A stretch of 64,000 bases of DNA from Nitrospirota bacterium (GCA_015484595.1 WFMM01000152.1:3842-67841); one strand, 5' to 3'; counted from the stretch's first letter, positions 33,352-47,970 are shown. Notes: generated by a model from the letters alone, not told the origin. Translations and numbers: made by a program.

Positions 33352-34551
33352 ATGCCACAGAAACATCCAACGCCACTAATTGACGAGCTGGAAAAGGGCG
33401 CTTTTCCAAGTTTCGTCAAAGAGATCAAGAGGGCAGCTGAAAGCAGCAATGTTCAGGACAACAACTACGCTCAGGACCTTCTTGGTCAGTTGGAACTCTC
33501 CTACAAGGAGAAAAAGACACACTGGAAACACGGTGGTATCGTAGGTGTCAGGGGTTACGGTTCTGGTGTTATCGGCAGATACTCTGATATTCCTGACCAG
33601 TTCCCTGGTGTTGCACACTTTCACACAATCAGGGTTAACCAGCCAGGTGGATTCTTCTACACAACCGAGGCGCTTCGCGAGATCTGTGACATCTGGGACA
33701 AGTACGGAAGTGGTCTTACAAACATGCACGGCTCCACAGGTGACATAATCCTTCTTGGCACCAAGACAGACAACCTGGAGCCTGTCTTTGCAGAGCTATC
33801 CTCAAGGGGCTGGGACCTCGGTGGTTCAGGTTCAGCAGTGAGGACCCCAAGCTGTTGTGTTGGCCCAGCAAGGTGTGAGTGGGCTTGCTATGATACCCTT
33901 GAGCTTACCTACCAGATAACGCAGAGGTTCCAGGATGAACTTCACAGGCCAATGTTTCCATACAAGTTTAAATTCAAGATGGCAGGATGTGCAGTGGACT
34001 GCATTGCATCCATTGCCCGTGCTGACATGTCAATAATCGGTACCTGGAAGGGTAACATCCAGATTGACCAGGACGAGGTCAGAAATTATGCCAAAAATGG
34101 CATGGACATACAGGCAGAGATCGTTGACATGTGTCCAACTGGCTGCATGAGCTGGGATGGAAATGAGCTTAAGATCAACGATGAAGACTGTAACAGGTGC
34201 ATGCACTGTATTGCCAAGATGACCAAGGCCCTCAGACAGGGTGAGGAAAAGGGTGCAACCATCCTGCTTGGTTCAAAGGCACCAATCGTTACAGGTGCAC
34301 TCATGTCATGGGTAATCGTTCCATTTATCAAGCTTGAGCCACCCTATGAGGAGCTCTTTGACCTGGTCGAGAGGATCTGGGAGTTCTGGGATGAGCATGG
34401 TAAGAACCGTGAAAGGGTCGGTGAGCTTATAGAGAGGATGGGCTTTCCTGTATTCCTGAAGGAGACCGGAATCGAGCCGCATCCTGCAATGGTGAAAGAG
34501 CCAAGGCGTGACCCATTCTTCTTCTGGTCAGAAGAGGATGTAGAGAAGTAA
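33352..34551 (+). CDS. dsrA: Dissimilatory sulfite reductase alpha subunit
   Basis: 399 aa with siroheme/FeS Cys clusters ([14 protein letters not shown]) and a ferredoxin insert (CPTGC...CNRCMHC). dsrB follows with strong RBSs. Confidence 0.95.
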
Positions 34552-34582: not shown

Positions 34583-35656
34583 ATGTCAGAATTACCACAG
34601 AGACAAACAGACATTGGACCACCGCATTATAGTAAGTTTTTACCACCTGTTATAAAGGAAAACTATGGTAAGTGGAGATATCACGAGATCTTAAGCGCTG
34701 GTGTAATGGTCCATGTTGCAGAAAGTGGTGCAAAGGTATGGACTGTCAGGGTTGCTTCACCAAGGCTTGTTTCAACTGACTTTATCAGGGACATCTGTGA
34801 GATCGCTGACAAGTACTGCGATGGTCATCTCAGGTTCACCACAAGGCACAATGTGGAGTTTCTCGTCTCTGATGAGAGCAAGGTTGACCCACTGGTCAAC
34901 GAGCTCAAGGAAAAGGGTTACATGATTGGTGGTATCGGTGACAGGATAAGTAATGTCGTCCATACCCAGGGCTGGGTGCACTGTCATTCAGCAGCAACCG
35001 ATGCTTCAGGTCTTGTTAAGGTGATGATGGATGAGCTCCATGAGTACTTCACAGAAAAGGAGCTCCCAGCAAAGGTAAGGCTTGCAGTTGCCTGCTGCGT
35101 TAACATGTGTGGTGCAGTTCACTGCTCAGACATAGCCCTTGTGGGTGTTCACAAAACACCACCAAGAATCGAGCACGATAAGGTCAAGAACCTCTGCGAG
35201 ATTCCATCAACCGTTGCATCCTGTCCTACCAGTGCTATCAGTCCTGATCCAGCAAAGAAGAGCGTCAAGATAAAGATTGAAAAGTGCATGTACTGTGGTA
35301 ACTGCTACTCTGTCTGCCCTGCAATGCCGATTTCTGATCCCAAAAACGACGGTGTTGCAATAGTGGTAGGTGGTAAGGTCAGTAACCTCAGGTCAAATCC
35401 AAAGTTTTCAAAGCTTGCTGTGCCGTGGCTTCCAAACAATCCACCAAGATGGCCTGAGGTGGTTGAGAATGTAAAGAAGATCCTCAACGCCTACATAGAG
35501 GGTGCAAAGAAGCATGAAAGGCTTGGTGAGTGGGTAGAGAGGATCGGATGGGAGAAGTTCTTTAAGGTAACAGGTCTTCCATTCCAGCTCCAGCACATCG
35601 ATGACTTCACCTTTGCCCGTGAGACCTGGAGAATGGCAGCCACCTTTAAGTGGTAA
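34583..35656 (+). CDS. dsrB: Dissimilatory sulfite reductase beta subunit
   Basis: 357 aa containing HTQGWVHCHSAATD, ACCVNMCGAVHC and CMYCGNCYSVCP. Confidence 0.95.
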   Translation: MSELPQRQTDIGPPHYSKFLPPVIKENYGKWRYHEILSAGVMVHVAESGAKVWTVRVASPRLVSTDFIRDICEIADKYCDGHLRFTTRHNVEFLVSDESKVDPLVNELKEKGYMIGGIGDRISNVVHTQGWVHCHSAATDASGLVKVMMDELHEYFTEKELPAKVRLAVACCVNMCGAVHCSDIALVGVHKTPPRIEHDKVKNLCEIPSTVASCPTSAISPDPAKKSVKIKIEKCMYCGNCYSVCPAMPISDPKNDGVAIVVGGKVSNLRSNPKFSKLAVPWLPNNPPRWPEVVENVKKILNAYIEGAKKHERLGEWVERIGWEKFFKVTGLPFQLQHIDDFTFARETWRMAATFKW

Positions 35657-35954: not shown

Positions 35955-37355
35955 GTGACTTACAGAATACCAAGGGTGGTTATAGCAGGGCTTCGTGGAG
36001 GCTCTGGTAAAACCACCCTTTCTGTTTCTTTATGCAGGGCCTTTACGCAAAAGGGCAGGAAGGTTACTGCCTTTAAAAAGGGGCCTGACTACATTGATGC
36101 AGGCTGGCTTTCAAAGGCAACGGGGAGGGATTGCTACAATCTTGATACCTACCTCATCCCAGAGGAGACGGTCTTTAAATCATTCCTTTACCACAGCAAA
36201 AACTCAGAGCTTTCTATAATCGAGGGTAACAGGGGGCTCTTTGATGGCCTTGACGCAGGCGGCACATTTAGCACGGCAGAACTCTCAAAGCGTCTTAAAG
36301 CACCGGTGGTAATAGTTGTGGATTGCACAAAGGTTACGAGAACCATTGCTGCCTTGTTAAAGGGGGTAAGAGAGTTCGACCCAGAGCTGATGCTTGAAGG
36401 TGTTATCCTTAACAACATAGCAGGCAAAAGACACGAGATGGTCATCAGGGAGGCTATCAAGGAGTATACGGACCTTAAGGTGATTGGTGTGGTAAAGAGG
36501 CTTAAGGATGTAGACCTCATTGAAAGGCACATGGGATTGAAGCCATACCAGGAGCATGATGATGTGGAGGGTATTATCGAAGGTCTAACAGAGCAGATTA
36601 CGCCTTCCATAGACCTTGAGATGCTTTTTAAGATTGCACATAGTGCCCCTGAGCTTATCCCTGATGAAGAGATCTCGCCTTACAGGGAAGGAGCATGTGA
36701 GGAACATCAGAGGGTGAGGATAGGTGTAATAAGAGACAGGGCCTTTCAGTTTTACTATCCCGAAAACCTGGAGGCACTTAAAAAACTCGGAGCTGAACTG
36801 ATTGAGATTGATGCCACCAGGATGGAAAACCTCCCCGAGATAGATGCACTTTACATTGGTGGTGGCTTCCCCGAAACCAATGCGATAGAGCTTTCCAGGA
36901 ACCGTAGCTTTATGGAAAGCCTGAAAGACAGGGCAGACTCTGGTCTGCCAGTTTATGCCGAGTGTGGTGGTTTGATGTATCTTGGCAGGGAGATACAATA
37001 CCTGGGGAAAAGCTACCCTATGACCGGAGTTCTACCACTTTCCTTTGAGCTATTTCAGAGACCGGTTGCCCATGGTTACACCGTTGTTGAGGTCACAGAG
37101 GAAAACCCCTTTTATCCGGTTGGCACGGTGATAAGGGGACACGAATTTCACTATTCAGCAGTAAAAGGTTATAATCAAGGTATAGAGTTCAGTTTCAGGA
37201 TGCTAAGGGGTAAGGGTATCAGGGATGGTCTTGATGGGGTTGTTTACAGAAATGTGCTTGCCACCTATACCCATGTGCATGCCCTTGGCGTGCCCCAATG
37301 GGCAGAGGGGCTGATAAATGCAGCAAGGAAGTACAGAGATGAAAGGAGCAGTTAA
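35955..37355 (+). CDS. dsrN: Cobyrinic acid a,c-diamide synthase-like amidase (DsrN, siroheme amidation), GTG start
   Basis: 466 aa with a P-loop (GLRGGSGKTT) and a C-terminal glutaminase Cys (YAECGGLMYL). It sits after dsrD. Confidence 0.8.
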   Translation: MTYRIPRVVIAGLRGGSGKTTLSVSLCRAFTQKGRKVTAFKKGPDYIDAGWLSKATGRDCYNLDTYLIPEETVFKSFLYHSKNSELSIIEGNRGLFDGLDAGGTFSTAELSKRLKAPVVIVVDCTKVTRTIAALLKGVREFDPELMLEGVILNNIAGKRHEMVIREAIKEYTDLKVIGVVKRLKDVDLIERHMGLKPYQEHDDVEGIIEGLTEQITPSIDLEMLFKIAHSAPELIPDEEISPYREGACEEHQRVRIGVIRDRAFQFYYPENLEALKKLGAELIEIDATRMENLPEIDALYIGGGFPETNAIELSRNRSFMESLKDRADSGLPVYAECGGLMYLGREIQYLGKSYPMTGVLPLSFELFQRPVAHGYTVVEVTEENPFYPVGTVIRGHEFHYSAVKGYNQGIEFSFRMLRGKGIRDGLDGVVYRNVLATYTHVHALGVPQWAEGLINAARKYRDERSS

Positions 37356-38022
37356 AAACAGGTTTCAGCTTAAAAAGCTCATACAGGATGCCCTCAAACA
37401 GAGAGACCTGGACCGTGTTGCAGAGTACGCCCTTGAAAGCCCCCGTACCGTGGGCATTCTTTTTAATCTTAGCTATGACAAGGACTCCATAATTACCTGG
37501 CGTGCAGTGGAGGCAATGGGAGAGGTAGCAAGGGTGCTTACCTATAGGTCTAAAGAGGAGGGCAGGGAGCTAATGAAGAGGCTTCTGTGGTCAATAACAG
37601 AGGAGTCCGGTGGGCTTGGATGGTCTTCCATTGAGATGATGGCAGAGGTGGTGGTGAGGTCACCCGAGGTCTTCAGCGACATACCGCTTCTTCTTCCTGA
37701 GTACTACGATGAGCCTGTGTTCAGGGACTCGGTGCTTTATGCACTGTGGCGGATTGGCTCGACACACCCTGAGCTGCTTTCTCCTAAAGATGTAAAGGAG
37801 GTGGTGCTTCAGGCACTTAGGTCAGAAAGCCCCTATCAGAGGGCCCTTGCACTTATGATAATTGAGGCAACAAGAGAGACTATAGACTACAAAGACATTG
37901 AGATAGACAGAGAGGTCTTCAACGATGATACACCTGTGAGGATTTACATTGATGGTCAGTTCGTCACGAGGCCATTAAAAGAACTCGCAGGTGCCCTTGA
38001 ACTTCCTGTCAGGAAACAATGA
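37339..38022 (+). CDS. Hypothetical alpha-helical (HEAT-like) protein
   Basis: About 227 aa from MKGAVKNRF. The start overlaps the dsrN 3' end and the stop overlaps the kinase start (ATGA). I recognised no catalytic motif. Confidence 0.45.
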   Translation: MKGAVKNRFQLKKLIQDALKQRDLDRVAEYALESPRTVGILFNLSYDKDSIITWRAVEAMGEVARVLTYRSKEEGRELMKRLLWSITEESGGLGWSSIEMMAEVVVRSPEVFSDIPLLLPEYYDEPVFRDSVLYALWRIGSTHPELLSPKDVKEVVLQALRSESPYQRALALMIIEATRETIDYKDIEIDREVFNDDTPVRIYIDGQFVTRPLKELAGALELPVRKQ

Positions 38023-39461
38023 GACTTACCATATTCAGCCGTCTCAGTTTTGGCTACCTCGTCCTTTTCCTGTTCGTCTTTTCAATAGGTGCCTTTTCAA
38101 TCTACCAGATAGAAAGGGTTAAGCTTAAGACCGCAAGGGTCATTACCAGCGACAGTCAGCTTATAGAGATTAACAAAAAACTGATTGACACCATCCTGAG
38201 TGCTGAAAAAAACGAAGAGAAGTATTTACTCATCGGCGATGATGCCTTTCTGAGACAGTACAGAATGGATACAGAGGAGTTCGAAGACAATCTTCAAAGA
38301 ATAAATGCCCTCACTGAAAACAGGGAGGTAAAGGTAATCATCGATGAAATAAAGGCTGCCTTCAGGAAGTACAGGGAAGTCTTTGACGAGGAGTTAGGGC
38401 TTATAAAGAGCAGGCTAAAGTACAACAAAAACATATACAAGTCAATGAAGGAAGAGCAGATCTCTGCGGTTCTCAGGGGTATTAATCGGCTCAAGGCAGT
38501 AAGCCGTCAGCACATCATAAGGACCCTCAAGGCAATCGATAGAGATGAGGAGTCTGTGGAGAGGTTGATCCTCATTGTTACGGCGTGGTTCCTGATAATA
38601 GGTGTGGTGCTTGCTGGTGTGATTACCAGAGGCATAGTAAAACCCCTTTCCATGATAAAGAGAAAGACCAGGGAGATTGCAGAGGGAGACCTTGAGCCAA
38701 ACCTTTCACTTAATGGGCCACCTGAGATAACAGAGGTTGCCCAGTCTATAAACTCCATGTGCGAAAAACTAAAGGAGATTGATAGACTGAAGGCAGACTT
38801 CTTCTCCGTTATGTCCCATGAACTCAGGACCCCTCTTACGGCAATAAAGGAAGGGGTGAGTCTGCTTAAGGAGGGTATCTGTGGCCCAACGAATGAAAAA
38901 CAGCAAAAGATACTGAACATACTGTCTGATGAGAGCAAAAGACTGGTAACGCTGGTTGACAACCTGCTTGACCTGTCTAAGATGGAGGCAGGAATGTTAG
39001 AATATAACTTCGAGGAAGTAAACATCAGTACACTGGTTAATCAGGTTGTTAAAGAGCTGTCTCCAATTGCGGAGGGTAAAGGGGTAAGCATCAGTGTAAG
39101 GGGGGATGTGCCTTCAAAGGTAAGGGCTGACAGCGAAAGGCTCCTTCAGGTGCTCAGGAATCTTATTGGAAATGCCCTTAAGTTCAGTCCCGAGGGCTCT
39201 GAGGTGTTGGTAGGGATTGATGCTGAATCATCAGGTGTGATGGTTTCCGTATCTGACAGGGGCCCTGGAATCCCCGAGGAGTACAGAGAGAAGATATTTG
39301 ACAGGTTTCAGCAGGCAAGGCTTCCAAACTCAAGCCTTTACAAGGGAACGGGGCTGGGTCTTTCAATAGTTAAAAACATAATAAATGGACATGGAGGAAG
39401 GGTATGGGTGGAAAGCAACGAAGGTGGTGGAAGCACCTTCAGGTTCTGGTTGCCTCTTTAG
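38019..39461 (+). CDS. Sensor histidine kinase (two TM, helical periplasmic domain, HAMP, HisKA, HATPase)
   Basis: The H-box is SVMSHELRTPLTAI, the N-box is NLIGNALKF, and the G-boxes are DRGPGIP...GTGLGLSIV. Confidence 0.85.
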   Translation: MRLTIFSRLSFGYLVLFLFVFSIGAFSIYQIERVKLKTARVITSDSQLIEINKKLIDTILSAEKNEEKYLLIGDDAFLRQYRMDTEEFEDNLQRINALTENREVKVIIDEIKAAFRKYREVFDEELGLIKSRLKYNKNIYKSMKEEQISAVLRGINRLKAVSRQHIIRTLKAIDRDEESVERLILIVTAWFLIIGVVLAGVITRGIVKPLSMIKRKTREIAEGDLEPNLSLNGPPEITEVAQSINSMCEKLKEIDRLKADFFSVMSHELRTPLTAIKEGVSLLKEGICGPTNEKQQKILNILSDESKRLVTLVDNLLDLSKMEAGMLEYNFEEVNISTLVNQVVKELSPIAEGKGVSISVRGDVPSKVRADSERLLQVLRNLIGNALKFSPEGSEVLVGIDAESSGVMVSVSDRGPGIPEEYREKIFDRFQQARLPNSSLYKGTGLGLSIVKNIINGHGGRVWVESNEGGGSTFRFWLPL

Positions 39462-39877
39462 TGGCACTTGTGTTTATACAGGGCTGTCTTCCCACTGTGG
39501 AGGTAAAAAAAAGGGCTGGCATGATGGCAAAAGGGGAAGAAAAAAACAGTAAGCCGGTGCTTAAGTGGGAAGAAAGGATGAAAAGCGGAGAGTATGATGA
39601 GTTTATGAAAGAGGCACAGGGTGTATACCAGAGTGCAGAGGATCCTCAACTGAAACAGAAGGCCCTTTATTACATGGCGCTAACACAGATACACCCTGAG
39701 AATCCATCAAGGGACCTGAAAAGGGCTGAGGGCTATTTCAGAAAGCTTATAGTCCTGTATCCTGATGGCATTTATGCTCAGGAATCAAGGGTCTGGCTCG
39801 GGCTTATCTCTATTATTGAGAAATCCAAAAAGATAGACATTGAGATAGAAAAGAAAAAGCAGGAGTTTTCCAGATAA
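39404..39877 (+). CDS. Lipoprotein with TPR-like helical repeat
   Basis: The N-terminus MGGKQRRWWKHLQVLVASLVALVFIQGC has a basic n-region, a hydrophobic core and a lipobox. It overlaps the kinase 3' end by 58 nt. A GTG at 39461 is an alternative start. Confidence 0.5.
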   Translation: MGGKQRRWWKHLQVLVASLVALVFIQGCLPTVEVKKRAGMMAKGEEKNSKPVLKWEERMKSGEYDEFMKEAQGVYQSAEDPQLKQKALYYMALTQIHPENPSRDLKRAEGYFRKLIVLYPDGIYAQESRVWLGLISIIEKSKKIDIEIEKKKQEFSR

Positions 39878-39878
39878 C

Positions 39879-41234
39879 ATGGCCAGTGCTTCGGTTTTGA
39901 TAGTGGACGATGACCTTAATCTTCTTGAGATCATGAAGATGAGGCTTGAGGCCTCAGGGTTTGATGTCACCACTGCCCGTGATGAAAACGAGGCAAGGGC
40001 CTTTATTAAGGAGAAGGACTTTGACCTTGCAGTGGTTGACCTTCAGCTTGTGCAGACCGACGGTATTACCCTTATGAGAGAAATACACGAGATTTATCCA
40101 CTTATGCCCGTGATTATCCTTACTGCCCACGGAAGCATTGAGAGTGCAGTTGAGGCCATGCGCAGGGGTGCCTTTAACTACCTTACAAAGCCCTTTGATG
40201 CAAGGGAGTTGATCGTCCAGATTGAAAGGGCACTTCGTAGCAGTGAGCTTGAGAAAGAGGTTCAACGGCTAAGGGACTTTCTCAAAGAGGAGTATGACTT
40301 TAAAAATATTATAGCCAGAAGCTCAGCAATGAAGAAGGTGCTTGAGCAGGTTTCAAGGATTGCCCAGGTTGACTCATCAGTTTATATTCATGGTGAAAGT
40401 GGAACCGGAAAGGAGCTCATTGCAAGGGCCATTCATCTTGCAAGTCCAAGGAGGGAGAGACCCTTTGTGGCAATAAACTGTGCTGCCCTTCCTGAGGGTG
40501 TGCTTGAGAGTGAGCTGTTCGGTCACGAAAAGGGTGCCTTTACAGGGGCGGTAAGGACGCTGAAGGGGATATTTCAGCGAGCAGAGGGAGGCACCGTTTT
40601 TTTAGACGAGATAGCAGACATGCCCCTTTCAATACAGGGGAGGTTCCTCAGGGTGCTTCAGGAAAGGCAGTTCTATCCACTGGGAAGTGACAGACCCGTC
40701 AGAGTAGATGTAAGGGTCATCGTGGCAACCAACAAGGACCTTGCAGAGGAGGTGAGGGCTGGCAGGTTCAGAGAGGACCTCTTTTTCAGGATACATGTGA
40801 TTCCTCTGAAGCTGCCCCCTCTGAGGGAGAGAAAGGAGGATATCCCCCTTCTGGTAAACCACTTTATAAAGAAATTCAGTGAAAAGATGAAAAAGAATGT
40901 CAACGGCATCAGCTCACGGGCACTTAAGAAGCTTATGCTTTACGACTGGCCTGGAAATGTAAGAGAGCTTGAAAATACCATAGAGTACGCCGTGGCAATG
41001 GCAAGGTCACAGACCATAGAGGATGACCTCATAACCGTAACCCCTGCCTCCACGATAAGCTCCCTGAGACCCTTCGATGAGGCAAAGAGTGAGTTTGAAA
41101 GGGAATATCTTATTAACCTTCTCCGACACACAGGGGGCAATGTCTCAAGGGCAGCAGAGATAGCAGGACGCTACAGGGCTGACCTCTATAACCTCATGAA
41201 AAAACACGGTATAAACCCAAAGGACTATAAATAG
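39879..41234 (+). CDS. Sigma-54-dependent response regulator (REC, AAA+, HTH; NtrC family)
   Basis: The receiver Asp sits in the context DLAVVDLQL. The Walker A is GESGTGKE, the GAFTGA loop is present, and the C-terminus is a Fis-type HTH. Confidence 0.92.
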   Translation: MASASVLIVDDDLNLLEIMKMRLEASGFDVTTARDENEARAFIKEKDFDLAVVDLQLVQTDGITLMREIHEIYPLMPVIILTAHGSIESAVEAMRRGAFNYLTKPFDARELIVQIERALRSSELEKEVQRLRDFLKEEYDFKNIIARSSAMKKVLEQVSRIAQVDSSVYIHGESGTGKELIARAIHLASPRRERPFVAINCAALPEGVLESELFGHEKGAFTGAVRTLKGIFQRAEGGTVFLDEIADMPLSIQGRFLRVLQERQFYPLGSDRPVRVDVRVIVATNKDLAEEVRAGRFREDLFFRIHVIPLKLPPLRERKEDIPLLVNHFIKKFSEKMKKNVNGISSRALKKLMLYDWPGNVRELENTIEYAVAMARSQTIEDDLITVTPASTISSLRPFDEAKSEFEREYLINLLRHTGGNVSRAAEIAGRYRADLYNLMKKHGINPKDYK

Positions 41235-41341: not shown

Positions 41342-41356
41342 TGGCATCATTATTGC
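41342..41356 (+). promoter_or_regulatory. Sigma-54 (-24/-12) promoter
   Basis: TGGCAT-cattA-TTGC has GG-N10-GC spacing that matches TGGCAC-N5-TTGC. It lies downstream of the sigma-54 activator gene and upstream of the multiheme cytochrome. Confidence 0.6.
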
Positions 41357-41528: not shown

Positions 41529-41708
41529 ATGGAGATACTGAAGCTTATAACTGCACTCCTTCTGATTGCAGGGGTGCTTCAGGGTATATCCTATCTGACA
41601 TGGAGTATTAAAGAGCTGCATCGGGATAAATTAAAGAAGGAGGTTAAGGTTTATGAAAAAGGCTCGAATAATGCTTATAGTTGCGGTAATACTCATGATT
41701 GTTTTTAG
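41529..41708 (+). CDS. Possible small single-TM protein (about 59 aa)
   Basis: GGGAGG sits 6 nt upstream of the ATG. MEILKLITALLLIAGVLQGISYL is a TM helix. The 3' end overlaps the cytochrome start by 56 nt, so coding status is uncertain. Confidence 0.3.
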   Translation: MEILKLITALLLIAGVLQGISYLTWSIKELHRDKLKKEVKVYEKGSNNAYSCGNTHDCF

Positions 41709-43746
41709 CCTATCGCAGGCATGGGCAGACAGAGGTAAAGAAAAACATCAAAGGCACCACAATGACAGAGAGCTAAAGATTCAAAAGGCAAAGCACAAAA
41801 GACATAAGGAAAGCTTTGTTATTAAGGATACACAAGATGATGACCGTGATGGAGATGAGCCCCAGACTGGTGGTGGCATAAATCAGCCCATTACAGGCCC
41901 AGGGTTTCAGGTGCTTGCCTTTAACGACCTTGGAATGCACTGTTATGACAAAGACTATTCAGTCTTTTCCATCCTGCCCCCCTTTAATGTCATCCACGCA
42001 CAGGTGGTGAAAAAGGGTGCTGAGCCAGAGGTGCTTGACGACAGCCAGGTTGAGGTCTACTACTCAGCGGTGGAGGACACTAAGGGCTCAATCAACACAA
42101 CCAGTGCTGGAAAGACGAATTTCTGGGATTATGTATACGAGCTTTTTGGTGTTTCACCTTCACCTGACGAGGGCCTTACCGGAAACAGGATGCCTGGTGA
42201 CAGAAAGACCTGGAGGATTTTTGCCGAGTACAATCCTGACAAAAAGTGGTTTACTGCCTCGGGAATACCGATTACTGCAACAGATGACAGCGGGGCAAAG
42301 AACCACTACCCCATGATGAGGATAACCGCAGTTGATAAGTCCACAGGACAGGTGCTTGCCTACACTGACATAGTGCTACCTGTATCAGATGAGATGCACT
42401 GCAGTGACTGTCACTCAACAGGTTGTATGGCAGCAAACCAGAGCACTGCAAAAAGGTACTCAATAGGTGCATGGAGTGATGGAGGAGGTGACCCGGAGAT
42501 AGAGTACAGGGAAAACATCCTGATACTTCATGATGCAAAACACGGAACAAACCTGCTTGGTTCAACGCCTGTGCTCTGTGCATCCTGTCACTACTCTCCT
42601 GCCCTTGACCTTGCTGGTAAAGGACCACAGGGGCCGCAGGTGGGGCTTCCACTTCTTTCTGAGGCAATTCACGGAAGGCATGGAAGGACAATTAACGATG
42701 AGCTTCCGTCAAACCCTGAGGATGCAATTATCCCGGATACCGCTGGAACAGGTGCCTGCTACTACTGTCACCCTGGAAGTTCAACTAAGTGTCTAAGGGG
42801 TGTTATGGCAGAGGCTGGTCTTGATTGTCAGAACTGCCACGGTGGTATGTTACAGGTGGCTGGTGAGTTTTCACAGAGGATGCCCTGGGTTGATGAGCCA
42901 AAGTGTCAGTCCTGTCATACAGGGGATGCAGTAAAAAACAATGGTGTAATAAGGGAGACAGTGGCTTACGACAGCTCTGACCCTGCTGCCCTGCCACGAC
43001 AAAACCCATGGAGCAGGTTTGCTGAAAATAACGATACCCTTTACAGAGACAGCCTTGGTCATGGTGGGCTTGCCTGTGAGGCCTGTCACGGAAGCACTCA
43101 TGCCATATGGCCAAGCAGGGAGCCTAACGACAATGTTTCAGCCACTGAGATACAGGGACATCAGGGTGTGATTATAGAATGCAGTGCCTGTCACGGAAAT
43201 AACCTTGCACCTACAACCGATGGTCCCCACGGAATGCACAATGTCAATGACCCTGTGTGGAACAAGGAACACGGAGATTTTTATGAGCAAAATGCCAGAA
43301 CCTGTAAAAGTTGCCACGGCCAGAACCTCCAAGGCACCGAGCTTTCCGAGACCCATGACGACAGGGTGCTTTTTGACAAAAGGGGTAACAGGATAAAACT
43401 TTCAAAGGGAACACAGGTGAGTTGCTCAATCTGTCACGAAAACCCTGAAACCGGAACCATGAATGCACCACCAACAGTGCCTGTGCAATCTCCCACACAG
43501 CCATCACAACCCACACAGCCTTCTAATCCTTCACAGCCAATGCAGCCTACAACGCCCACACAGCCTGACGGTGTAGCCCTTTATACTCAGAACTGCTCAG
43601 GCTGTCACGGACCTCTTGCACGCTCGTCTAAACGAGGCGCCACTGCCTCACAGATACAGAATGCCATTAACAAAAACTTCGGTGGTATGGGCAGGTTTAA
43701 GAGCCTGACCACCGCTGAGATAAATGCCATAGCCTCCGTCCTATAA
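41653..43746 (+). CDS. Ten-heme c-type cytochrome: a nine-heme body, a P/T/Q linker, and a C-terminal class-I monoheme domain
   Basis: The RBS GGAGG precedes the signal peptide ..LSQAWA/D. The ten CXXCH motifs are CSDCH, CASCH, CYYCH, CQNCH, CQSCH, CEACH, CSACH, CKSCH, CSICH and CSGCH. Confidence 0.85.
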   Translation: MKKARIMLIVAVILMIVFSLSQAWADRGKEKHQRHHNDRELKIQKAKHKRHKESFVIKDTQDDDRDGDEPQTGGGINQPITGPGFQVLAFNDLGMHCYDKDYSVFSILPPFNVIHAQVVKKGAEPEVLDDSQVEVYYSAVEDTKGSINTTSAGKTNFWDYVYELFGVSPSPDEGLTGNRMPGDRKTWRIFAEYNPDKKWFTASGIPITATDDSGAKNHYPMMRITAVDKSTGQVLAYTDIVLPVSDEMHCSDCHSTGCMAANQSTAKRYSIGAWSDGGGDPEIEYRENILILHDAKHGTNLLGSTPVLCASCHYSPALDLAGKGPQGPQVGLPLLSEAIHGRHGRTINDELPSNPEDAIIPDTAGTGACYYCHPGSSTKCLRGVMAEAGLDCQNCHGGMLQVAGEFSQRMPWVDEPKCQSCHTGDAVKNNGVIRETVAYDSSDPAALPRQNPWSRFAENNDTLYRDSLGHGGLACEACHGSTHAIWPSREPNDNVSATEIQGHQGVIIECSACHGNNLAPTTDGPHGMHNVNDPVWNKEHGDFYEQNARTCKSCHGQNLQGTELSETHDDRVLFDKRGNRIKLSKGTQVSCSICHENPETGTMNAPPTVPVQSPTQPSQPTQPSNPSQPMQPTTPTQPDGVALYTQNCSGCHGPLARSSKRGATASQIQNAINKNFGGMGRFKSLTTAEINAIASVL

Positions 43747-43766
43747 ACCCCCAGCCCTCCTTCAAA

Positions 43767-43799
43767 GGGAGAGACTGTTGTCTCTCCCTCTCTTTTTTA
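43767..43799 (+). terminator. Rho-independent terminator after the cytochrome gene
   Basis: GGGAGAGAC-tgtt-GTCTCTCCC gives a 9-bp stem, followed by TCTCTTTTTTATTT. Confidence 0.7.
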
Positions 43800-43800
43800 T

Positions 43801-43830
43801 TTGACTTTATCGGTTATGTCTTATTATAAT
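43801..43830 (+). promoter_or_regulatory. Near-consensus sigma-70-type promoter
   Basis: The pattern is TTGACT-N18-TATAAT. The -10 element ends 14 nt before the ATG at 43845, and no SD lies in between. Confidence 0.5.
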
Positions 43831-43844
43831 TTTCTATTCATCAA

Positions 43845-44225
43845 ATGAAGTACAGAGAAGACAAGAGCACACTATATGAGCCACGGTGTCCCTTTTGCAG
43901 GGATTTTTTTTCAAGACCAGTAGATATAGATACCGATTTCGGGGCCTTTTCAGGAGGGGTCTGTAGCTGCGGCGCTGTGTATGCCTTTGACCCAACAGGT
44001 AGAAACCTGGGGGAGACCTTTATGGATGCCCTCTCATACGCCTGTGGTGGTGATTACGAAAAGGCGGTGAGTCTTGAGGCAGGAGTGGATTACGAAGAAT
44101 ACATATTACAGTACAATTACAGAACCCATAGCATCTCTCCAGGAAGGGCCTACAGTTTATTCGATAGAAGAGCAAGGGGAATGCTTTACTTTGTAAAATT
44201 AAAAAATATTAAGGCCACTGATTGA
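43845..44225 (+). CDS. Cys-rich hypothetical protein (putative zinc ribbon)
   Basis: 126 aa. CPFC-X24-CSC suggests four Cys ligands near the N-terminus. I recognised no family. The gene lies between the cytochrome terminator and the dsrC promoter. Confidence 0.5.
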   Translation: MKYREDKSTLYEPRCPFCRDFFSRPVDIDTDFGAFSGGVCSCGAVYAFDPTGRNLGETFMDALSYACGGDYEKAVSLEAGVDYEEYILQYNYRTHSISPGRAYSLFDRRARGMLYFVKLKNIKATD

Positions 44226-44345: not shown

Positions 44346-44681
44346 ATGCCAACATTAGAATTCCAGGGCAAACAGATCGAGGTCGATGAGGAAGGTTATC
44401 TCCAGAACCTTGATGACTGGACTCCTGAGCTTGCTGCCTACATGGCTCAGCAGGATGGTCAGGAACTGACAGACGAGCACTGGGAGATCATCAACTTTCT
44501 GAGGGATTATTATCAGAAGTATCAGATTGCTCCAATGATCAAGATTCTGGTTAAGGAGATCAAAAAGACCATGGGACCTGATAAGGGTAACACCAAGTAT
44601 CTCTATCAGCTCTTTCCAGATGGTCCAGCAAAGCAGGCCTGTAGGTATGCAGGACTGCCAAAACCAACAGGTTGCGTATAA
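44346..44681 (+). CDS. dsrC: DsrC
   Basis: 111 aa. The C-terminal arm CRYAGLPKPTGCV carries the two conserved Cys residues, and the N-terminus has the TusE-like pattern. Confidence 0.95.
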   Translation: MPTLEFQGKQIEVDEEGYLQNLDDWTPELAAYMAQQDGQELTDEHWEIINFLRDYYQKYQIAPMIKILVKEIKKTMGPDKGNTKYLYQLFPDGPAKQACRYAGLPKPTGCV

Positions 44682-44748: not shown

Positions 44749-45267
44749 ATGGGGATAAGGGAACAACTAAAAGAAAACAGGGAAAAGATACTGAGCAGAT
44801 GGTTTGAAAGTATTTTAAAGACCTATCCAGCAGAGACAGTCAGGTTTCTTAAAAAAACAAAAGACCAGTTTCACAATCCTGTAGGACAAACGATAAAAGA
44901 AGGTATAGAGGGTATATTATTTGAGCTAACCGGGGAAGGGGAGATAGAAAAGATAACCCCCTTTCTTGACAGAATTATCAGAATCAGGGCAATTCAGGAC
45001 TTCACTCCATCAGAAGCAGTTGCTTTCATCTTTCAGCTAAAGGGTATTATCAGAGAGGAAATTGATTTGGACAGAATCGGCTCTGAGGAGCTTCTGGGGC
45101 TGGATAAAAAAATAGACGAGCTGGCATTGAAGACCTTTGATATCTACATGGGATGTAGAGAAAAGCTCTATGAACTAAAGGCCACGGAGCTAAGGAACTG
45201 GACATACAAACTGCTTGAGAGGGCTAATCTTTTAAAAGAGTTTGAAGAGAATTTCAAATCAAAGTAG
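44749..45267 (+). CDS. RsbRD-N-terminal-like helical protein in the DsrT position, upstream of dsrMKJOP
   Basis: 172 aa. The N-terminus, ENREKILSRWFESILKTYPAETVRFLKKTKDQFHNPVG, looks like RsbRD_N. The DsrT assignment comes from position and from my recollection of the family, so it is tentative. Confidence 0.5.
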   Translation: MGIREQLKENREKILSRWFESILKTYPAETVRFLKKTKDQFHNPVGQTIKEGIEGILFELTGEGEIEKITPFLDRIIRIRAIQDFTPSEAVAFIFQLKGIIREEIDLDRIGSEELLGLDKKIDELALKTFDIYMGCREKLYELKATELRNWTYKLLERANLLKEFEENFKSK

Positions 45268-45290: not shown

Positions 45291-46334
45291 ATGGGAGCAT
45301 TGTTATCCTTTGGAGCTGTTGTGGTTCTTTTGCTTATCCCTGCCATCGGTGCTGGTGCCCTCAAACTCCACTCTCTGTTTGGTGTGGTAATTCCCTACCT
45401 GGCTGTTATAGTTTTTCTTGTAGGACTGATAAACAGGGTAATCGGCTGGGGAAAGGTGCCTGTGCCTTTCAAGATTCCGACCACCTGCGGACAGCAGAAA
45501 TCACTCCCCTGGATTAAGCACAGCAGGCTTGAATCTCCAGCAACCGGTGGTGAGGTGTTCTTGAGGATGGTTCTTGAGGTGTTGTTTTTCAGGTCACTGT
45601 TCAGGAATCTGAGAACCGAAAAGGCTCCTGGTGACCGCGTGGTTTACGGCTCTTCAAAGTGGTTGTGGGTAGCAGGGCTGGCCTTTCACTATTCCTTCCT
45701 TATTGTGTTTCTGAGGCATCTGAGGTTCTTTAAACAACCCACACCAAAGATAATAGGGATTATTGAAAGCTTTGATGGCTTTCTGCAGATAGGCTCACCA
45801 CACCTCTTAGTAACAGGGCTTGTGCTTTTTGGAGCGGTTTTTTATCTCTTTTTAAGAAGAATCTTTGTCCCCCAGGTTCGTTACATCTCGCTTCCTGCTG
45901 ACTATTTCCCGCTGTTTCTGATAATGGCAATAGCTGGCACAGGTATGTTGATGAGGTATTTTCTGAGGGTTGATATTATAAAGGTCAAAGAGCTTACCAT
46001 GGGGCTTGCCACCTTTCATCCAAAGGTGCCTGAAGGTATTAGTGTTATCTTTTACATACACCTCTTTCTTGTTTCAACCCTTTTTGCATATTTCCCCTTC
46101 AGCAAGATGGTTCACCTTGGGGGTGTTTTCCTGAGTCCAACGAGAAACTTAGCTAACAACACCCGCATGGTCCATCATCCAAACCCCTGGAATTATCCTG
46201 TGAAGGTTCATACCTATGAGGAGTACGAAGAGGAGTTCAGAGACAAGATGATAGCCGCGGGTATACCTGTTGAAAAACAGCCTGAACCAAGGGAAGAGGA
46301 ACAACCCACAGAAGAAAGCGAAGGAAAGGAGTGA
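45291..46334 (+). CDS. dsrM: DsrM (NarI-like membrane dihaem b subunit)
   Basis: 347 aa, multi-TM with conserved His in the helices. It is the first gene of the MKJOP order. Confidence 0.9.
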   Translation: MGALLSFGAVVVLLLIPAIGAGALKLHSLFGVVIPYLAVIVFLVGLINRVIGWGKVPVPFKIPTTCGQQKSLPWIKHSRLESPATGGEVFLRMVLEVLFFRSLFRNLRTEKAPGDRVVYGSSKWLWVAGLAFHYSFLIVFLRHLRFFKQPTPKIIGIIESFDGFLQIGSPHLLVTGLVLFGAVFYLFLRRIFVPQVRYISLPADYFPLFLIMAIAGTGMLMRYFLRVDIIKVKELTMGLATFHPKVPEGISVIFYIHLFLVSTLFAYFPFSKMVHLGGVFLSPTRNLANNTRMVHHPNPWNYPVKVHTYEEYEEEFRDKMIAAGIPVEKQPEPREEEQPTEESEGKE

Positions 46335-46338
46335 TACC

Positions 46339-47970
46339 ATGTCAAAACAGCCAAAGCCACCAAAGCCCGACGAATTAGCAAAGTCAATAGAATACAAAAC
46401 TCCTGAAACTCAATGGATGGAAACCCCTGTAAAGTTTAAACCTGGTATGTGGTGCTATGGCTCAAGGCCAAAGTACCTTGAAGAAGTGGGCATGCCTAAC
46501 CCAAGGGAGTGGTCACCCGCAGATGACGATTGGAAGCTACCTGAGAACTGGAAAGAAATCGTGCTCGACGGGATGAAAGACCGTCTTGGCAAGTACAGGA
46601 CCTTCAAGCTCTTTATGGACATATGCGTTCGTTGTGGGGCCTGTGCTGACAAGTGTCACTTTTACATAGGATCGGGTGACCCAAAGAACATGCCTGTATT
46701 AAGGGCAGAGCTAATGCGGTCTGTTTACAGAAAGTACTTCACCACTGGCGGAAAACTATTTGGAAAGACCGCAGGTGCCCGTGAGCTTACAGAGGATGTA
46801 ATAAAGGAATGGTGGTATTACTACTATCAGTGCACCGAGTGCCGTCGTTGTTCTGTTTTTTGTCCCTATGGTATTGACACGGCTGAGATAACAATAATGG
46901 GCAGGGAGCTTACCAATCTCCTGGGTCTTCAGACCGACTGGATAGGCGGTCCAGTGGCAAACTGCTATCACAAGGGTAACCACCTCGGGCTTGAGCCCCA
47001 CACGATACAGAGCAACATAGAGATGATGTGTGATGATATAGAGGAGATAACAGGTATAAGGATTGAACCAACTTTTAATCGTAAGGGAGCTGAGATACTC
47101 TTTGTAACACCCTCTGGTGACCTTTTTGGTCTTCCTGGAATTTATACCTGTATGGGATACCTGATGCTCTTTCACGAGCTTGGTCTTGATTACACATGGA
47201 GCACCTATGCCTCTGAGGGTGGTAACTTTGGCTTCTTTACATCAAACGAGATGGCCAAGAGGCTTCATTACAAGATATACGCAGAGGCAAAGCGTCTTGG
47301 CGTTAAGTGGATACTGGGTGGTGAGTGTGGTCACATGTGGAGGCTCGTTCATCAGTATCTGAACACCTGGTGGGGACCACCGGACTTTCTTGAGGTTCCA
47401 AAATCTCCAATAACTGGTACTGTCTTTGAAAATGCCAAAAGCACAAAGATGGTCCATGTTACCGAGTTTACGGCTGACCTCATCAAGCACGGCAAGATAA
47501 AACTTGACCCAAGTCGTAATGATCATCTGAAGATAACATTCCACGACTCCTGTAACACATCCAGAGGAATGGGTATCTTTGAAGAACCCCGTTACATCAT
47601 AAAGCATGTGGCAAGGCATTTTTACGAGATGCCTGAGAATACCATCAGGGAGAAGACCTTCTGCTGTGGAAGTGGTTCAGGATTGAATGCTGGTGAGAAC
47701 ATGGAGCTCAGGATGCGTGGTGGATTCCCGAGGGCCAACGCTGTCAGGTATGTCCACGAAAAATACGGCGTAAACATGCTTGCCAATATATGTGCAATTG
47801 ACAGGGCAGCACTTCCGACCCTGATGCAGTACTGGGTACCCGAGGTTGATGTCTGCGGTGTTCACGAACTGGTTGGTAATGCACTGGTGATGACCGGAGA
47901 GAAGAAGAGAACCATGGATCTCAGGTTAGAGCCGCTTCCTGGAATGGAAGATGAGGAAGAGGAGGAATAA
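46339..47970 (+). CDS. dsrK: DsrK (HdrD-like FeS/CCG-domain subunit)
   Basis: The start is taken at MSKQPKPP, with AAGGAAAGGAG upstream. It has the ferredoxin motifs CVRCGACADKC and CTECRRCSVFCP, and the CCG motif FCCGSGSG. Confidence 0.92.
   Translation: MSKQPKPPKPDELAKSIEYKTPETQWMETPVKFKPGMWCYGSRPKYLEEVGMPNPREWSPADDDWKLPENWKEIVLDGMKDRLGKYRTFKLFMDICVRCGACADKCHFYIGSGDPKNMPVLRAELMRSVYRKYFTTGGKLFGKTAGARELTEDVIKEWWYYYYQCTECRRCSVFCPYGIDTAEITIMGRELTNLLGLQTDWIGGPVANCYHKGNHLGLEPHTIQSNIEMMCDDIEEITGIRIEPTFNRKGAEILFVTPSGDLFGLPGIYTCMGYLMLFHELGLDYTWSTYASEGGNFGFFTSNEMAKRLHYKIYAEAKRLGVKWILGGECGHMWRLVHQYLNTWWGPPDFLEVPKSPITGTVFENAKSTKMVHVTEFTADLIKHGKIKLDPSRNDHLKITFHDSCNTSRGMGIFEEPRYIIKHVARHFYEMPENTIREKTFCCGSGSGLNAGENMELRMRGGFPRANAVRYVHEKYGVNMLANICAIDRAALPTLMQYWVPEVDVCGVHELVGNALVMTGEKKRTMDLRLEPLPGMEDEEEEE

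Follow-up and report, generated by a model that had tools for sequence, protein, structure and literature searches.

What could be the use of a cytochrome in which nine hemes follow a heme-free domain and a tenth hangs on a low-complexity tail? The question is raised by a gene at nucleotides (nt) 41653-43746 (plus strand) of a 64,000-nt stretch of DNA from a Nitrospirota bacterium (GCA_015484595.1 WFMM01000152.1:3842-67841), hereafter the window. The open reading frame (ORF), preceded by an AGGAGG ribosome-binding site, encodes 697 amino acids (aa) with a Sec signal peptide and ten heme-binding CXXCH motifs. A first-pass annotation, made from the sequence alone, had read the product as a catalytic or substrate-binding N-terminal module wired through a heme chain to a tethered, mobile monoheme docking domain. 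The decaheme protein is exported, and its host is a sulfate-reducing Nitrospirota bacterium. The reading that appeared most likely, to which we give a probability of roughly one half, is an exported electron-transfer protein with a nine-heme chain and a tethered heme of the type found in PgcA of Geobacter sulfurreducens.

Domain layout and the tethered tenth heme

The ten CXXCH motifs of the protein start at aa 250, 309, 369, 392, 418, 475, 510, 551, 591 and 648. The first nine (plus strand, starting at nt 42400, 42577, 42757, 42826, 42904, 43075, 43180, 43303 and 43423) form the nine-heme domain (aa 246-600, nt 42388-43452) and span 346 aa, against about 400 in the first-pass annotation. Ahead of them lies the family-defining, heme-free beta-sandwich domain (aa 80-245, nt 41890-42387), modelled by AlphaFold2 (AF2) with a predicted local distance difference test score (pLDDT) above 90; this heme-free region had been noticed earlier, but measures 166 aa and not about 200. 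The heme 9 motif is located 11 residues ahead of a flexible tether rich in Pro, Gln, Thr and Ser (aa 606-638, nt 43468-43566), recognized by its composition and by pLDDT values of 33-35, which leads to a monoheme cytochrome domain of PgcA domain I/II type (aa 639-697 plus the stop codon, nt 43567-43746). A low-complexity linker (placed at nt 43464-43570) and a C-terminal monoheme domain of about 60 aa had both been predicted, and both were found. The signal peptide (aa 1-25, nt 41653-41727), with cleavage between AWA and D and an AF2 helix over aa 2-24, contains no lipobox in its sequence. Every CH dipeptide of the protein falls within a CXXCH motif, as had been stated, which rules out an MccA-like CX15CH, and a motif scan detected no CXXCK, CX3-4CH or other long-spacer heme motif in the protein.

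Conservation of ligands and cysteines was counted over 231 full-length cores, which also allowed the supposedly unusual layout to be judged. The C-terminal fusion is indeed rare (5 of the 231 cores, in Nitrospirota and a Desulfobacterales metagenome-assembled genome, or MAG), but the layout of the core itself is common. These features are not due to chance, since the nine core motifs were 100% conserved among the 231 homologous cores and the linker with its monoheme domain recurred in independent assemblies. The latter also speaks against the linker being an assembly artefact, the case that would have undone the first description.

The C-terminal domain is of the PgcA domain I/II kind, save for an acidic hydrogen-bonding residue and the lipoprotein anchor. 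Its last 61 aa matched PgcA cytochrome domains 1 and 2 in phmmer searches (E 2.6e-13 for 8qj6 and 1.9e-10 for 8qjg), and its modelled four-helix fold was superposed on PgcA domains I/II by Foldseek with template modelling (TM) scores of 0.84-0.90, root-mean-square deviations (rmsd) of 1.0-1.4 A and 48-50% identity. Apart from weak non-specific hits, PgcA domains were the only PDB matches of the full model. The Pfam family PF13442 matched the domain at 33.3 bits. Its CSGCH motif (aa 648-652, nt 43594-43608) ends with His652, and Met679 (nt 43687-43689), within GGMG, follows at a spacing of 27 residues, as do His365 and Met392 in PgcA domain II; His652/Met679 are the predicted axial ligands.

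The tether PPTVPVQSPTQPSQPTQPSNPSQPMQPTTPTQP is 33 residues long, including 12 Pro, 7 Gln, 6 Thr and 4 Ser, with a weak 9-nt repeat in the underlying DNA. Its length exceeds that of the tether in a relative 94% identical overall (P0270; 21 vs 33 residues) by 12 residues and that in P0001 by 6, while the linkers of P0004 and P0006 are (PT)5. The PgcA homology in sequence, fold and ligand spacing, the disorder of the linker and its polymorphic length together bear out the tethered, mobile character that the first-pass annotation had ascribed to the monoheme domain.

For triheme PgcA (PDB 8qj6, 8qjg; PMC11520253, PMC10570954), experiments have shown that the (PT)x-linked domains tumble independently of one another, reach across up to 180 A and exchange electrons through tethered diffusion, with domain midpoint potentials of -48 to -106 mV (PMC11520253). 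The window protein shares the monoheme fold, the His/Met pair at +27 in GGMG and a proline-rich, low-complexity, protease-resistant-looking linker. It differs in having a single tethered domain instead of three, fixed to a rigid nine-heme protein while those of PgcA are joined to other free domains, and a linker rich in PQ, PT and PS rather than strictly (PT)n. It also has neither a lipobox nor the bis-His mineral-binding domain III of PgcA, carries Ser659 in place of an acidic residue, and belongs to a sulfate-reducing Nitrospirota bacterium.

In a neighbour-joining tree without support values, lineages with the fusion were interspersed with unfused ones. A six-heme relative of the core (P0245, 737 aa, on a Logan contig of 3950 nt), which keeps the GMHC loop and the partner Cys of the nine-heme proteins (see below), carries three tethered monoheme domains at its N-terminus, with hydrophobic helices flanking the protein N- and C-terminally; here the module was fused independently, at the N-terminus. 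Tandem proteins with 5-11 PgcA-like His/Met monoheme domains on PT/PS-rich linkers, some with lipoboxes, were also found (P0165, P0172, P0202, P0207, P0209, P0214, P0223, P0228, P0249, P0257 and P0268), with far more hemes than the three of PgcA. The monoheme domain is a portable unit, as displayed by the N-terminal fusion in P0245 and by the tandem proteins. A small cytochrome on a flexible link is a known form of built-in mobile carrier in redox enzymes, such as cytochrome-fused copper nitrite reductases, cellobiose dehydrogenase and quinohaemoprotein alcohol dehydrogenases. The design principle is shared, while in the window protein the larger module is a nine-heme chain, the carrier is a PgcA-type domain and the core is non-homologous.

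The segment between the signal peptide and the beta-sandwich (aa 26-79, nt 41728-41889) is a disordered remnant, with pLDDT below 50 for aa 26-43 and 57-79. It comprises the His/Lys-rich basic stretch DRGKEKHQRHHNDRELKIQKAKHKRHKESF (aa 26-55) and the acidic patch DDDRDGDE (aa 62-69), both reported earlier, as well as the scar of a deletion. Alignment of the DNA with an 88%-identical locus (L001) revealed a clean in-frame gap of 213 nt (71 codons) in the window at nt 41827/41828. The missing segment is a small Ig-like beta domain with two Cys, kept in P0001-P0004, in P0006 and in many family members; one source labelled it IPT/TIG, while no Pfam match was obtained for these 71 aa. The deletion is a real and recent allele, because it is shared by P0273 (from a separate, independent assembly at ENA), which differs from the window protein only by C258G, and by both the NCBI and Logan records of the window protein itself, and because P0270 (about 98% identical in the core) still retains the 71-aa domain. 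An assembly artefact behind the deletion or the linker was rejected, both alleles recurring in independent assemblies. The basic and acidic patches, taken at first as parts of a designed module, are flanks of this recent deletion and no functional module, as seen from the alignments with L001 and P0270. The residue that distinguishes P0273, Cys258 (in CSDCHSTGC, nt 42424-42426), is unique to the window sequence, with Gly or another residue in P0273 and nearly all members; a substitution at strain level is more probable than a functional Cys.

The loss of 71 codons relative to close relatives, and a remnant that has gained extra His residues and fallen to 70% identity against about 98% in the core (comparison with P0270), could be signs of a gene that is itself being lost, in which case the layout would have no functional meaning. 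This is very improbable: the deletion is in frame, and the ORF, signal peptide, ten heme motifs, invariant residues, ribosome-binding site, promoter box and terminator are all intact. Moreover, the same allele is found in independent assemblies, and many family members naturally lack the small domain.

The nine-heme core family and its cysteine pair

The core (aa 80-600) belongs to a large family: 6323 of 8000 candidates matched with E <=1e-5, 585 clusters at 50% identity had E <=1e-30, and members were present in at least 563 species-representative genomes. The window protein is 50-65% identical to hundreds of them over aa 80-600. Hosts include Nitrospirota, Thermodesulfobacteriota, Planctomycetota (among them an anammox MAG), Acidobacteriota and Myxococcota, as well as sulfur-oxidising Gammaproteobacteria (Thiodiazotropha, Sedimenticola, Marithrix, Thiomargarita, Parabeggiatoa, Chromatiaceae and tubeworm symbionts). 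We define here the 'NDLGMHC' nonaheme family by a beta-sandwich bearing an N-x-x-G-M-H-C-x-D loop, nine CXXCH motifs whose spacing is conserved, the motif CxxCHPGxxTxCxRGxM and eight invariant distal His, all of which are present in the window protein. Source annotations call its members only 'cytochrome C' or 'hypothetical', and no published description was found in the literature on nonaheme or nine-heme cytochromes and on multihemes of Thiodiazotropha, Beggiatoa and Thermodesulfovibrionia. Full-length homologs of the window protein exist, none of them with a known function that would have settled the matter otherwise. Four proteins met in this search were rejected as different: a Ferrigenium membrane nonaheme, the Mtr-cluster MtrA-DOMON nonaheme, pentaheme MccSep and the Allochromatium pyrite cytochromes.

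All members of the family are exported proteins, about 29% of them with a lipobox, and most stop a few residues past heme 9. Ig-like additions are present at the N-terminus of some members. About 35 of the 231 cores (P0142-P0231 and others; e.g., P0146, aa 567-653) are extended at the C-terminus by 200-1170 aa of cadherin-like/Big_9 Ig repeats (consensus RIVSQPxHGTVxLxGxxATYxPxxGFxGTDxF), while others have acidic Asp/Glu tails, or ASH/DUF1573 or CarboxypepD_reg domains at the N-terminus. Lipoboxes, Big_9 tails, Ig-like additions and an MtrC-like module hint at a cell-envelope or cell-surface role in many hosts; the window protein itself shows no more than a plain signal peptide.

The core could be connected to known cytochromes only in part. 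Among 70 members, 55 matched PF22113 (MtrC/MtrF domain II/IV) from heme 4 onward, with a best E of 1.6e-15 and several above the 30-bit cut-off, and 4 matched PF02335 (NrfA) across hemes 1-5. Family-profile alignment by hhalign placed R382-K428 on residues 272-324 of Escherichia coli NrfA, with hemes 4 and 5 on NrfA hemes 4 and 5, in agreement with phmmer against Geobacter lovleyi NrfA. Hemes 4 and 5 have the same spacing as in NrfA, while the catalytic heme 1 of NrfA is without counterpart in this register, the alignment covering only NrfA 272-324. The window protein also differs from the NrfA superfamily by the lack of CXXCK, of CX15CH and of a C-terminal three-helix bundle signal. No Pfam family and no significant fold match, only weak non-specific ones (Foldseek, full model vs PDB), were obtained for the beta-sandwich head. 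For the heme core modelled separately by AF2 (pLDDT 78), Foldseek returned no match with E <1, heme-less models of multiheme proteins being poorly suited to 3Di search, and the core matched no PDB sequence by phmmer or family profile.

With MtrC, OmcA, MtrF and UndA of Shewanella, the family shares the PF22113 match over the later hemes (4-9) of most members, a beta-rich heme-free domain ahead of hemes, a conserved Cys pair involving a beta domain, and many members that are lipoproteins or bear adhesin-like domains. A redox-active disulfide of MtrC has been proposed to gate flavin binding. However, the family has nine hemes (one MtrC-like module plus an NrfA-like part) and not 5+5, and one beta domain instead of two; its Cys pair bridges the beta and heme domains, whereas that of MtrC lies within domain III. 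No mtrAB-type porin or partner genes were found near the window gene, whose neighbours are a two-component system and dsr genes. The protein resembles OcwA in its nine hemes, its beta domain and a probable His/Met heme. No sequence or fold similarity to OcwA, MccA, OTR, ONR or HAO was detected by phmmer, profile or Foldseek searches. Membership in the MtrC/OmcA, NrfA, MccA or OcwA families was rejected, as their defining features were tested and not found: one beta domain followed by nine contiguous heme motifs departs from the four-domain layout (I-IV) of MtrC, to which the Foldseek match was poor (E 0.012, rmsd 21 A), and neither the CX15CH of MccA nor a PDB sequence match was obtained.

Besides the heme-binding His, eight further His (293, 340, 343, 470, 483, 526, 529 and 540) were essentially invariant. 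Met385 (nt 42805-42807) was 99% conserved, with His instead in two sequences, and falls on NrfA His275 in the hhalign/phmmer register. The eight His and Met385 would provide nine candidate distal ligands for nine hemes, probably as eight bis-His hemes and one His/Met heme; Met385 is a candidate ligand by virtue of its alignment register and of the Met-to-His swaps. Because there is one candidate distal ligand per heme, no sign of an open catalytic heme appeared in the sequence.

The beta-sandwich head is tied to the heme domain by a pair of cysteines. A head loop, N91..G94-M95-H96-C97..D99 (M-H-C at nt 41935-41943), has M95, H96 and C97 conserved at 96-97%, while Cys380 (nt 42790-42792) is located seven residues past the proximal His of heme 3. 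Cys97 and Cys380 were both present in 221 sequences, both missing in 8 and never found singly (Fisher p = 6e-15). The eight pair-less sequences retained all nine hemes, and each was closer to a pair-bearing protein than to any other of the eight, so the pair was lost several times. His96 was lost in 6 of these 8 sequences and nowhere else, which points to more than a purely structural staple; Arg382 and Lys154 were invariant. This strict co-occurrence supports a contact between the N-terminal module and the heme domain, in keeping with the wiring first proposed, and marks a physical or functional coupling of the head to the heme 3 segment, as a putative disulfide, redox-active Cys pair or small metal site.

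The same residues could also be read as an active site, much as the first-pass annotation had it, with the head and the His96/Cys97/Cys380/Arg382 cluster working on or next to heme 3 on a soluble sulfur or nitrogen substrate (polysulfide, thiosulfate/tetrathionate, sulfite, nitrite or hydroxylamine), with the other hemes and the tethered domain as source or sink of the electrons. The loss of a His-Cys...Cys triad as a unit, with nine hemes kept, is typical of a dispensable active site, and the invariance of Arg382 and Lys154 would fit. The heme 3 motif lies at the active-site His region of NrfA in the same register, MccSep offers a precedent for a Cys at a multiheme active site, OcwA has open hemes despite sufficient His, and the family is concentrated in sulfur-cycling bacteria (Thiodiazotropha, Beggiatoaceae, Sedimenticola, Chromatiaceae, Desulfobacterota, Thermodesulfovibrionales). 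However, all nine hemes have a conserved candidate distal ligand, CXXCK and CX15CH are missing, similarity to OTR, ONR, HAO, MccA or OcwA was not detectable, and accessory or maturation genes are not conserved nearby. The Planctomycetota, Myxococcota and Acidobacteriota hosts and the adhesin-like tails better fit a surface electron conduit. An enzyme is a serious, though less probable, alternative to electron transfer, and the catalytic or substrate-binding role first given to the head stays putative, given its lack of a Pfam family and of a significant fold match and the nine candidate ligands.

A more specific form of this idea, which we regard as rather doubtful, is that His96-Cys97...Cys380 together with Arg382 and Met385 beside heme 3 would constitute an undescribed thiol-based redox or catalytic site, that the family would be a widespread sulfur-species oxidoreductase, and that in this Nitrospirota clade it would be tied into the Dsr pathway and have its own tethered carrier. 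If true, more than 560 species of sulfur-cycling bacteria would possess an oxidoreductase, periplasmic or at the surface, that acts on polysulfide, elemental sulfur or thiosulfate/tetrathionate.

Gene setting and regulation

The cytochrome gene lies within a dissimilatory sulfite reductase (dsr) locus. Upstream are dsrA (33352-34551), dsrB (34583-35656), a dsrN-like amidase gene (35955-37355) and a gene for a DVU0298-family protein (37318-38022), followed on the plus strand by genes for a sensor histidine kinase (38019-39461) and a sigma-54-dependent response regulator (39879-41234), both recognized by NCBIfam/Pfam matches. Between the latter two, a small lipoprotein-like ORF (39404-39877, plus strand) shares 58 nt with the end of the kinase gene; it contains a lipobox-like FIQGC, matches TPR weakly, is kept in L001 (165 aa) and may be an accessory sensor component. 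Downstream are a Cys-rich ORF of 126 aa (CPFC...CSCG; 43845-44225, plus strand), without a family match and conserved in position and length in L001, then dsrC (44346-44681), a gene for an RsbRD_N protein (44749-45267) and dsrMKJOP (from 45291). The dsrK ORF (46270-47970, plus strand; 566 aa) opens with a TTG overlapping dsrM, while the DsrK model begins at residue 68 and the L001 ortholog has 543 aa; translation probably begins some 23 codons further downstream.

A sigma-54 (-24/-12) promoter-like box, TGGCATCATTATTGC (41342-41356, plus strand), lies past the regulator gene and shows one mismatch to TGGCAC-N5-TTGC. The nearest genomic relative is an uncultured Nitrospirota MAG at 88% identity (L004), and the whole gene arrangement is syntenic in L001, L002 and L004, with the two-component block upstream of the orthologous cytochrome gene. 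The box is identical in these three loci (at -262 from the gene) though the flanking DNA has diverged. The kinase and sigma-54 regulator pair is the probable regulator of the cytochrome gene. Of 77 family loci, 5 have a sigma-54 box upstream of the cytochrome gene, where about 0.09 would be expected, including one other Thermodesulfovibrionales locus and one Deltaproteobacteria locus (L013 at -64 and L071 at -133); a family-wide sigma-54 dependence was rejected on this count.

An intrinsic terminator (43766-43799, plus strand; 10-bp stem with 6 G-C pairs and a T-run) closes the gene, and a sigma-70-like promoter (11/12; 43801-43830, plus strand) stands ahead of the 126-aa ORF. From these motifs, the cytochrome gene would form its own sigma-54 transcription unit. 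Its position in the dsr locus does not imply co-transcription, since terminator and promoter separate it from the next ORF and from dsrC. Just ahead of the cytochrome gene, and running into its start, is a further ORF of 59 aa (MEILKLITALLLIAGVLQGISYLTW...; 41529-41708, plus strand) that encodes one hydrophobic helix behind a strong GGGAGG ribosome-binding site; its first 29 codons show only synonymous changes and two conservative substitutions in L001, and it has no Pfam match.

The setting raises the possibility that, in this Nitrospirota clade, DsrJ of DsrMKJOP finds its missing periplasmic redox partner in the cytochrome, which would link the sulfite-reduction machinery to a periplasmic donor or acceptor, with the tethered heme docking on DsrJ. 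The gene stands between dsrABDN and dsrC-dsrMKJOP, this position is conserved in the 88%-identity relatives, and many other family hosts carry Dsr systems as well. Adjacency alone is nevertheless weak evidence: a terminator of its own insulates the gene as a sigma-54 unit, a separate promoter serves the gene that follows, no dsr adjacency or conserved neighbour was found outside this clade, and the monoheme fusion also occurs in a Desulfobacterales protein. A dedicated Dsr role accordingly seems unlikely.

Neighbourhoods of 83 family loci showed lineage-specific synteny, with two-component genes in 23 of them. In five Desulfobacteraceae/Desulfatiglandales loci, the cytochrome gene is preceded, some 160 nt upstream on the same strand, by a gene whose product of about 274 aa resembles an outer-membrane beta-barrel and has Phe as its last residue (L024 3071-3895, L029 1215-2039, L042 2191-3015, L048 3050-3604 and L074 4733-5557).

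Proposed mechanism and significance

As an electron-transfer protein, the cytochrome would work as three units. In the first, the beta-sandwich head (aa 80-245) would be coupled through its Met95-His96-Cys97 loop to Cys380 by a disulfide or a shared thiol/metal site. The second would be a rigid nine-heme chain, NrfA-like around hemes 3-5 and MtrC domain II/IV-like over hemes 4-9, conducting electrons to or from a head-proximal site. The third, restricted to the Nitrospirota/Desulfobacterales lineage, would be the His652/Met679 monoheme on its 33-residue proline-rich tether, a built-in mobile carrier that could swing within about 100 A, judging from the length of the linker, and exchange electrons between the end of the chain and a partner out of reach of the rigid core. 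Expression would come from a sigma-54 unit driven by the adjacent kinase/regulator pair, separate from the dsrC and dsrMKJOP transcripts. In this scheme, the homologies of the domains, the spacing of the ligands, the co-occurrence of the two Cys, the deletion, the polymorphic linker and the promoter and terminator motifs are observed, and the heme ligation, the chemistry of the disulfide or site, the direction of electron flow, the partner and the substrate are what we infer.

Several observations weigh against it. The proximity of Cys97 and Cys380 and all heme ligation were deduced from conservation only. Two hemes of OcwA are open despite enough His for bis-His ligation, so counting ligands can mislead and a catalytic heme may yet exist in the core. 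The heme core was without fold match in the Foldseek search of the full model against the PDB, the window protein itself stayed below the MtrC (PF22113) and NrfA (PF02335) Pfam models at E up to 1, and the hhalign probability to NrfA was only 13%. In PgcA domains I and II, an acidic residue at +7 (Glu281/Asp372) forms a hydrogen bond with the proximal His; its counterpart in the monoheme domain of the window protein is Ser659. Unlike PgcA or MtrC, the protein lacks a lipobox and has no evident secretion or porin partner; clustering of neighbours across the 83 loci yielded no conserved gene neighbour, and the searched literature held no experimental data on any family member.

The core is a very widespread exported cytochrome without a studied member, whose hosts include lucinid and tubeworm symbionts, Beggiatoaceae and anammox bacteria. 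The co-occurring Cys pair with its adjacent His offers a concrete site for mutation, and natural alleles, with linkers of 21 or 33 residues and with or without the Ig-like domain, are ready-made test constructs. In 2024, PgcA was put forward as the first protein with hemes that operate through tethered diffusion and not as a packed chain. Here, a PgcA-type module is grafted on a packed nine-heme chain, with at least two independent grafts (C-terminal in the window protein, three N-terminal copies in P0245), which indicates that the tethered heme is a portable "extension lead" reused by evolution. Joined in this way, a packed chain and a PgcA-type heme on a tether amount to known parts newly combined, not to a new kind of machine.

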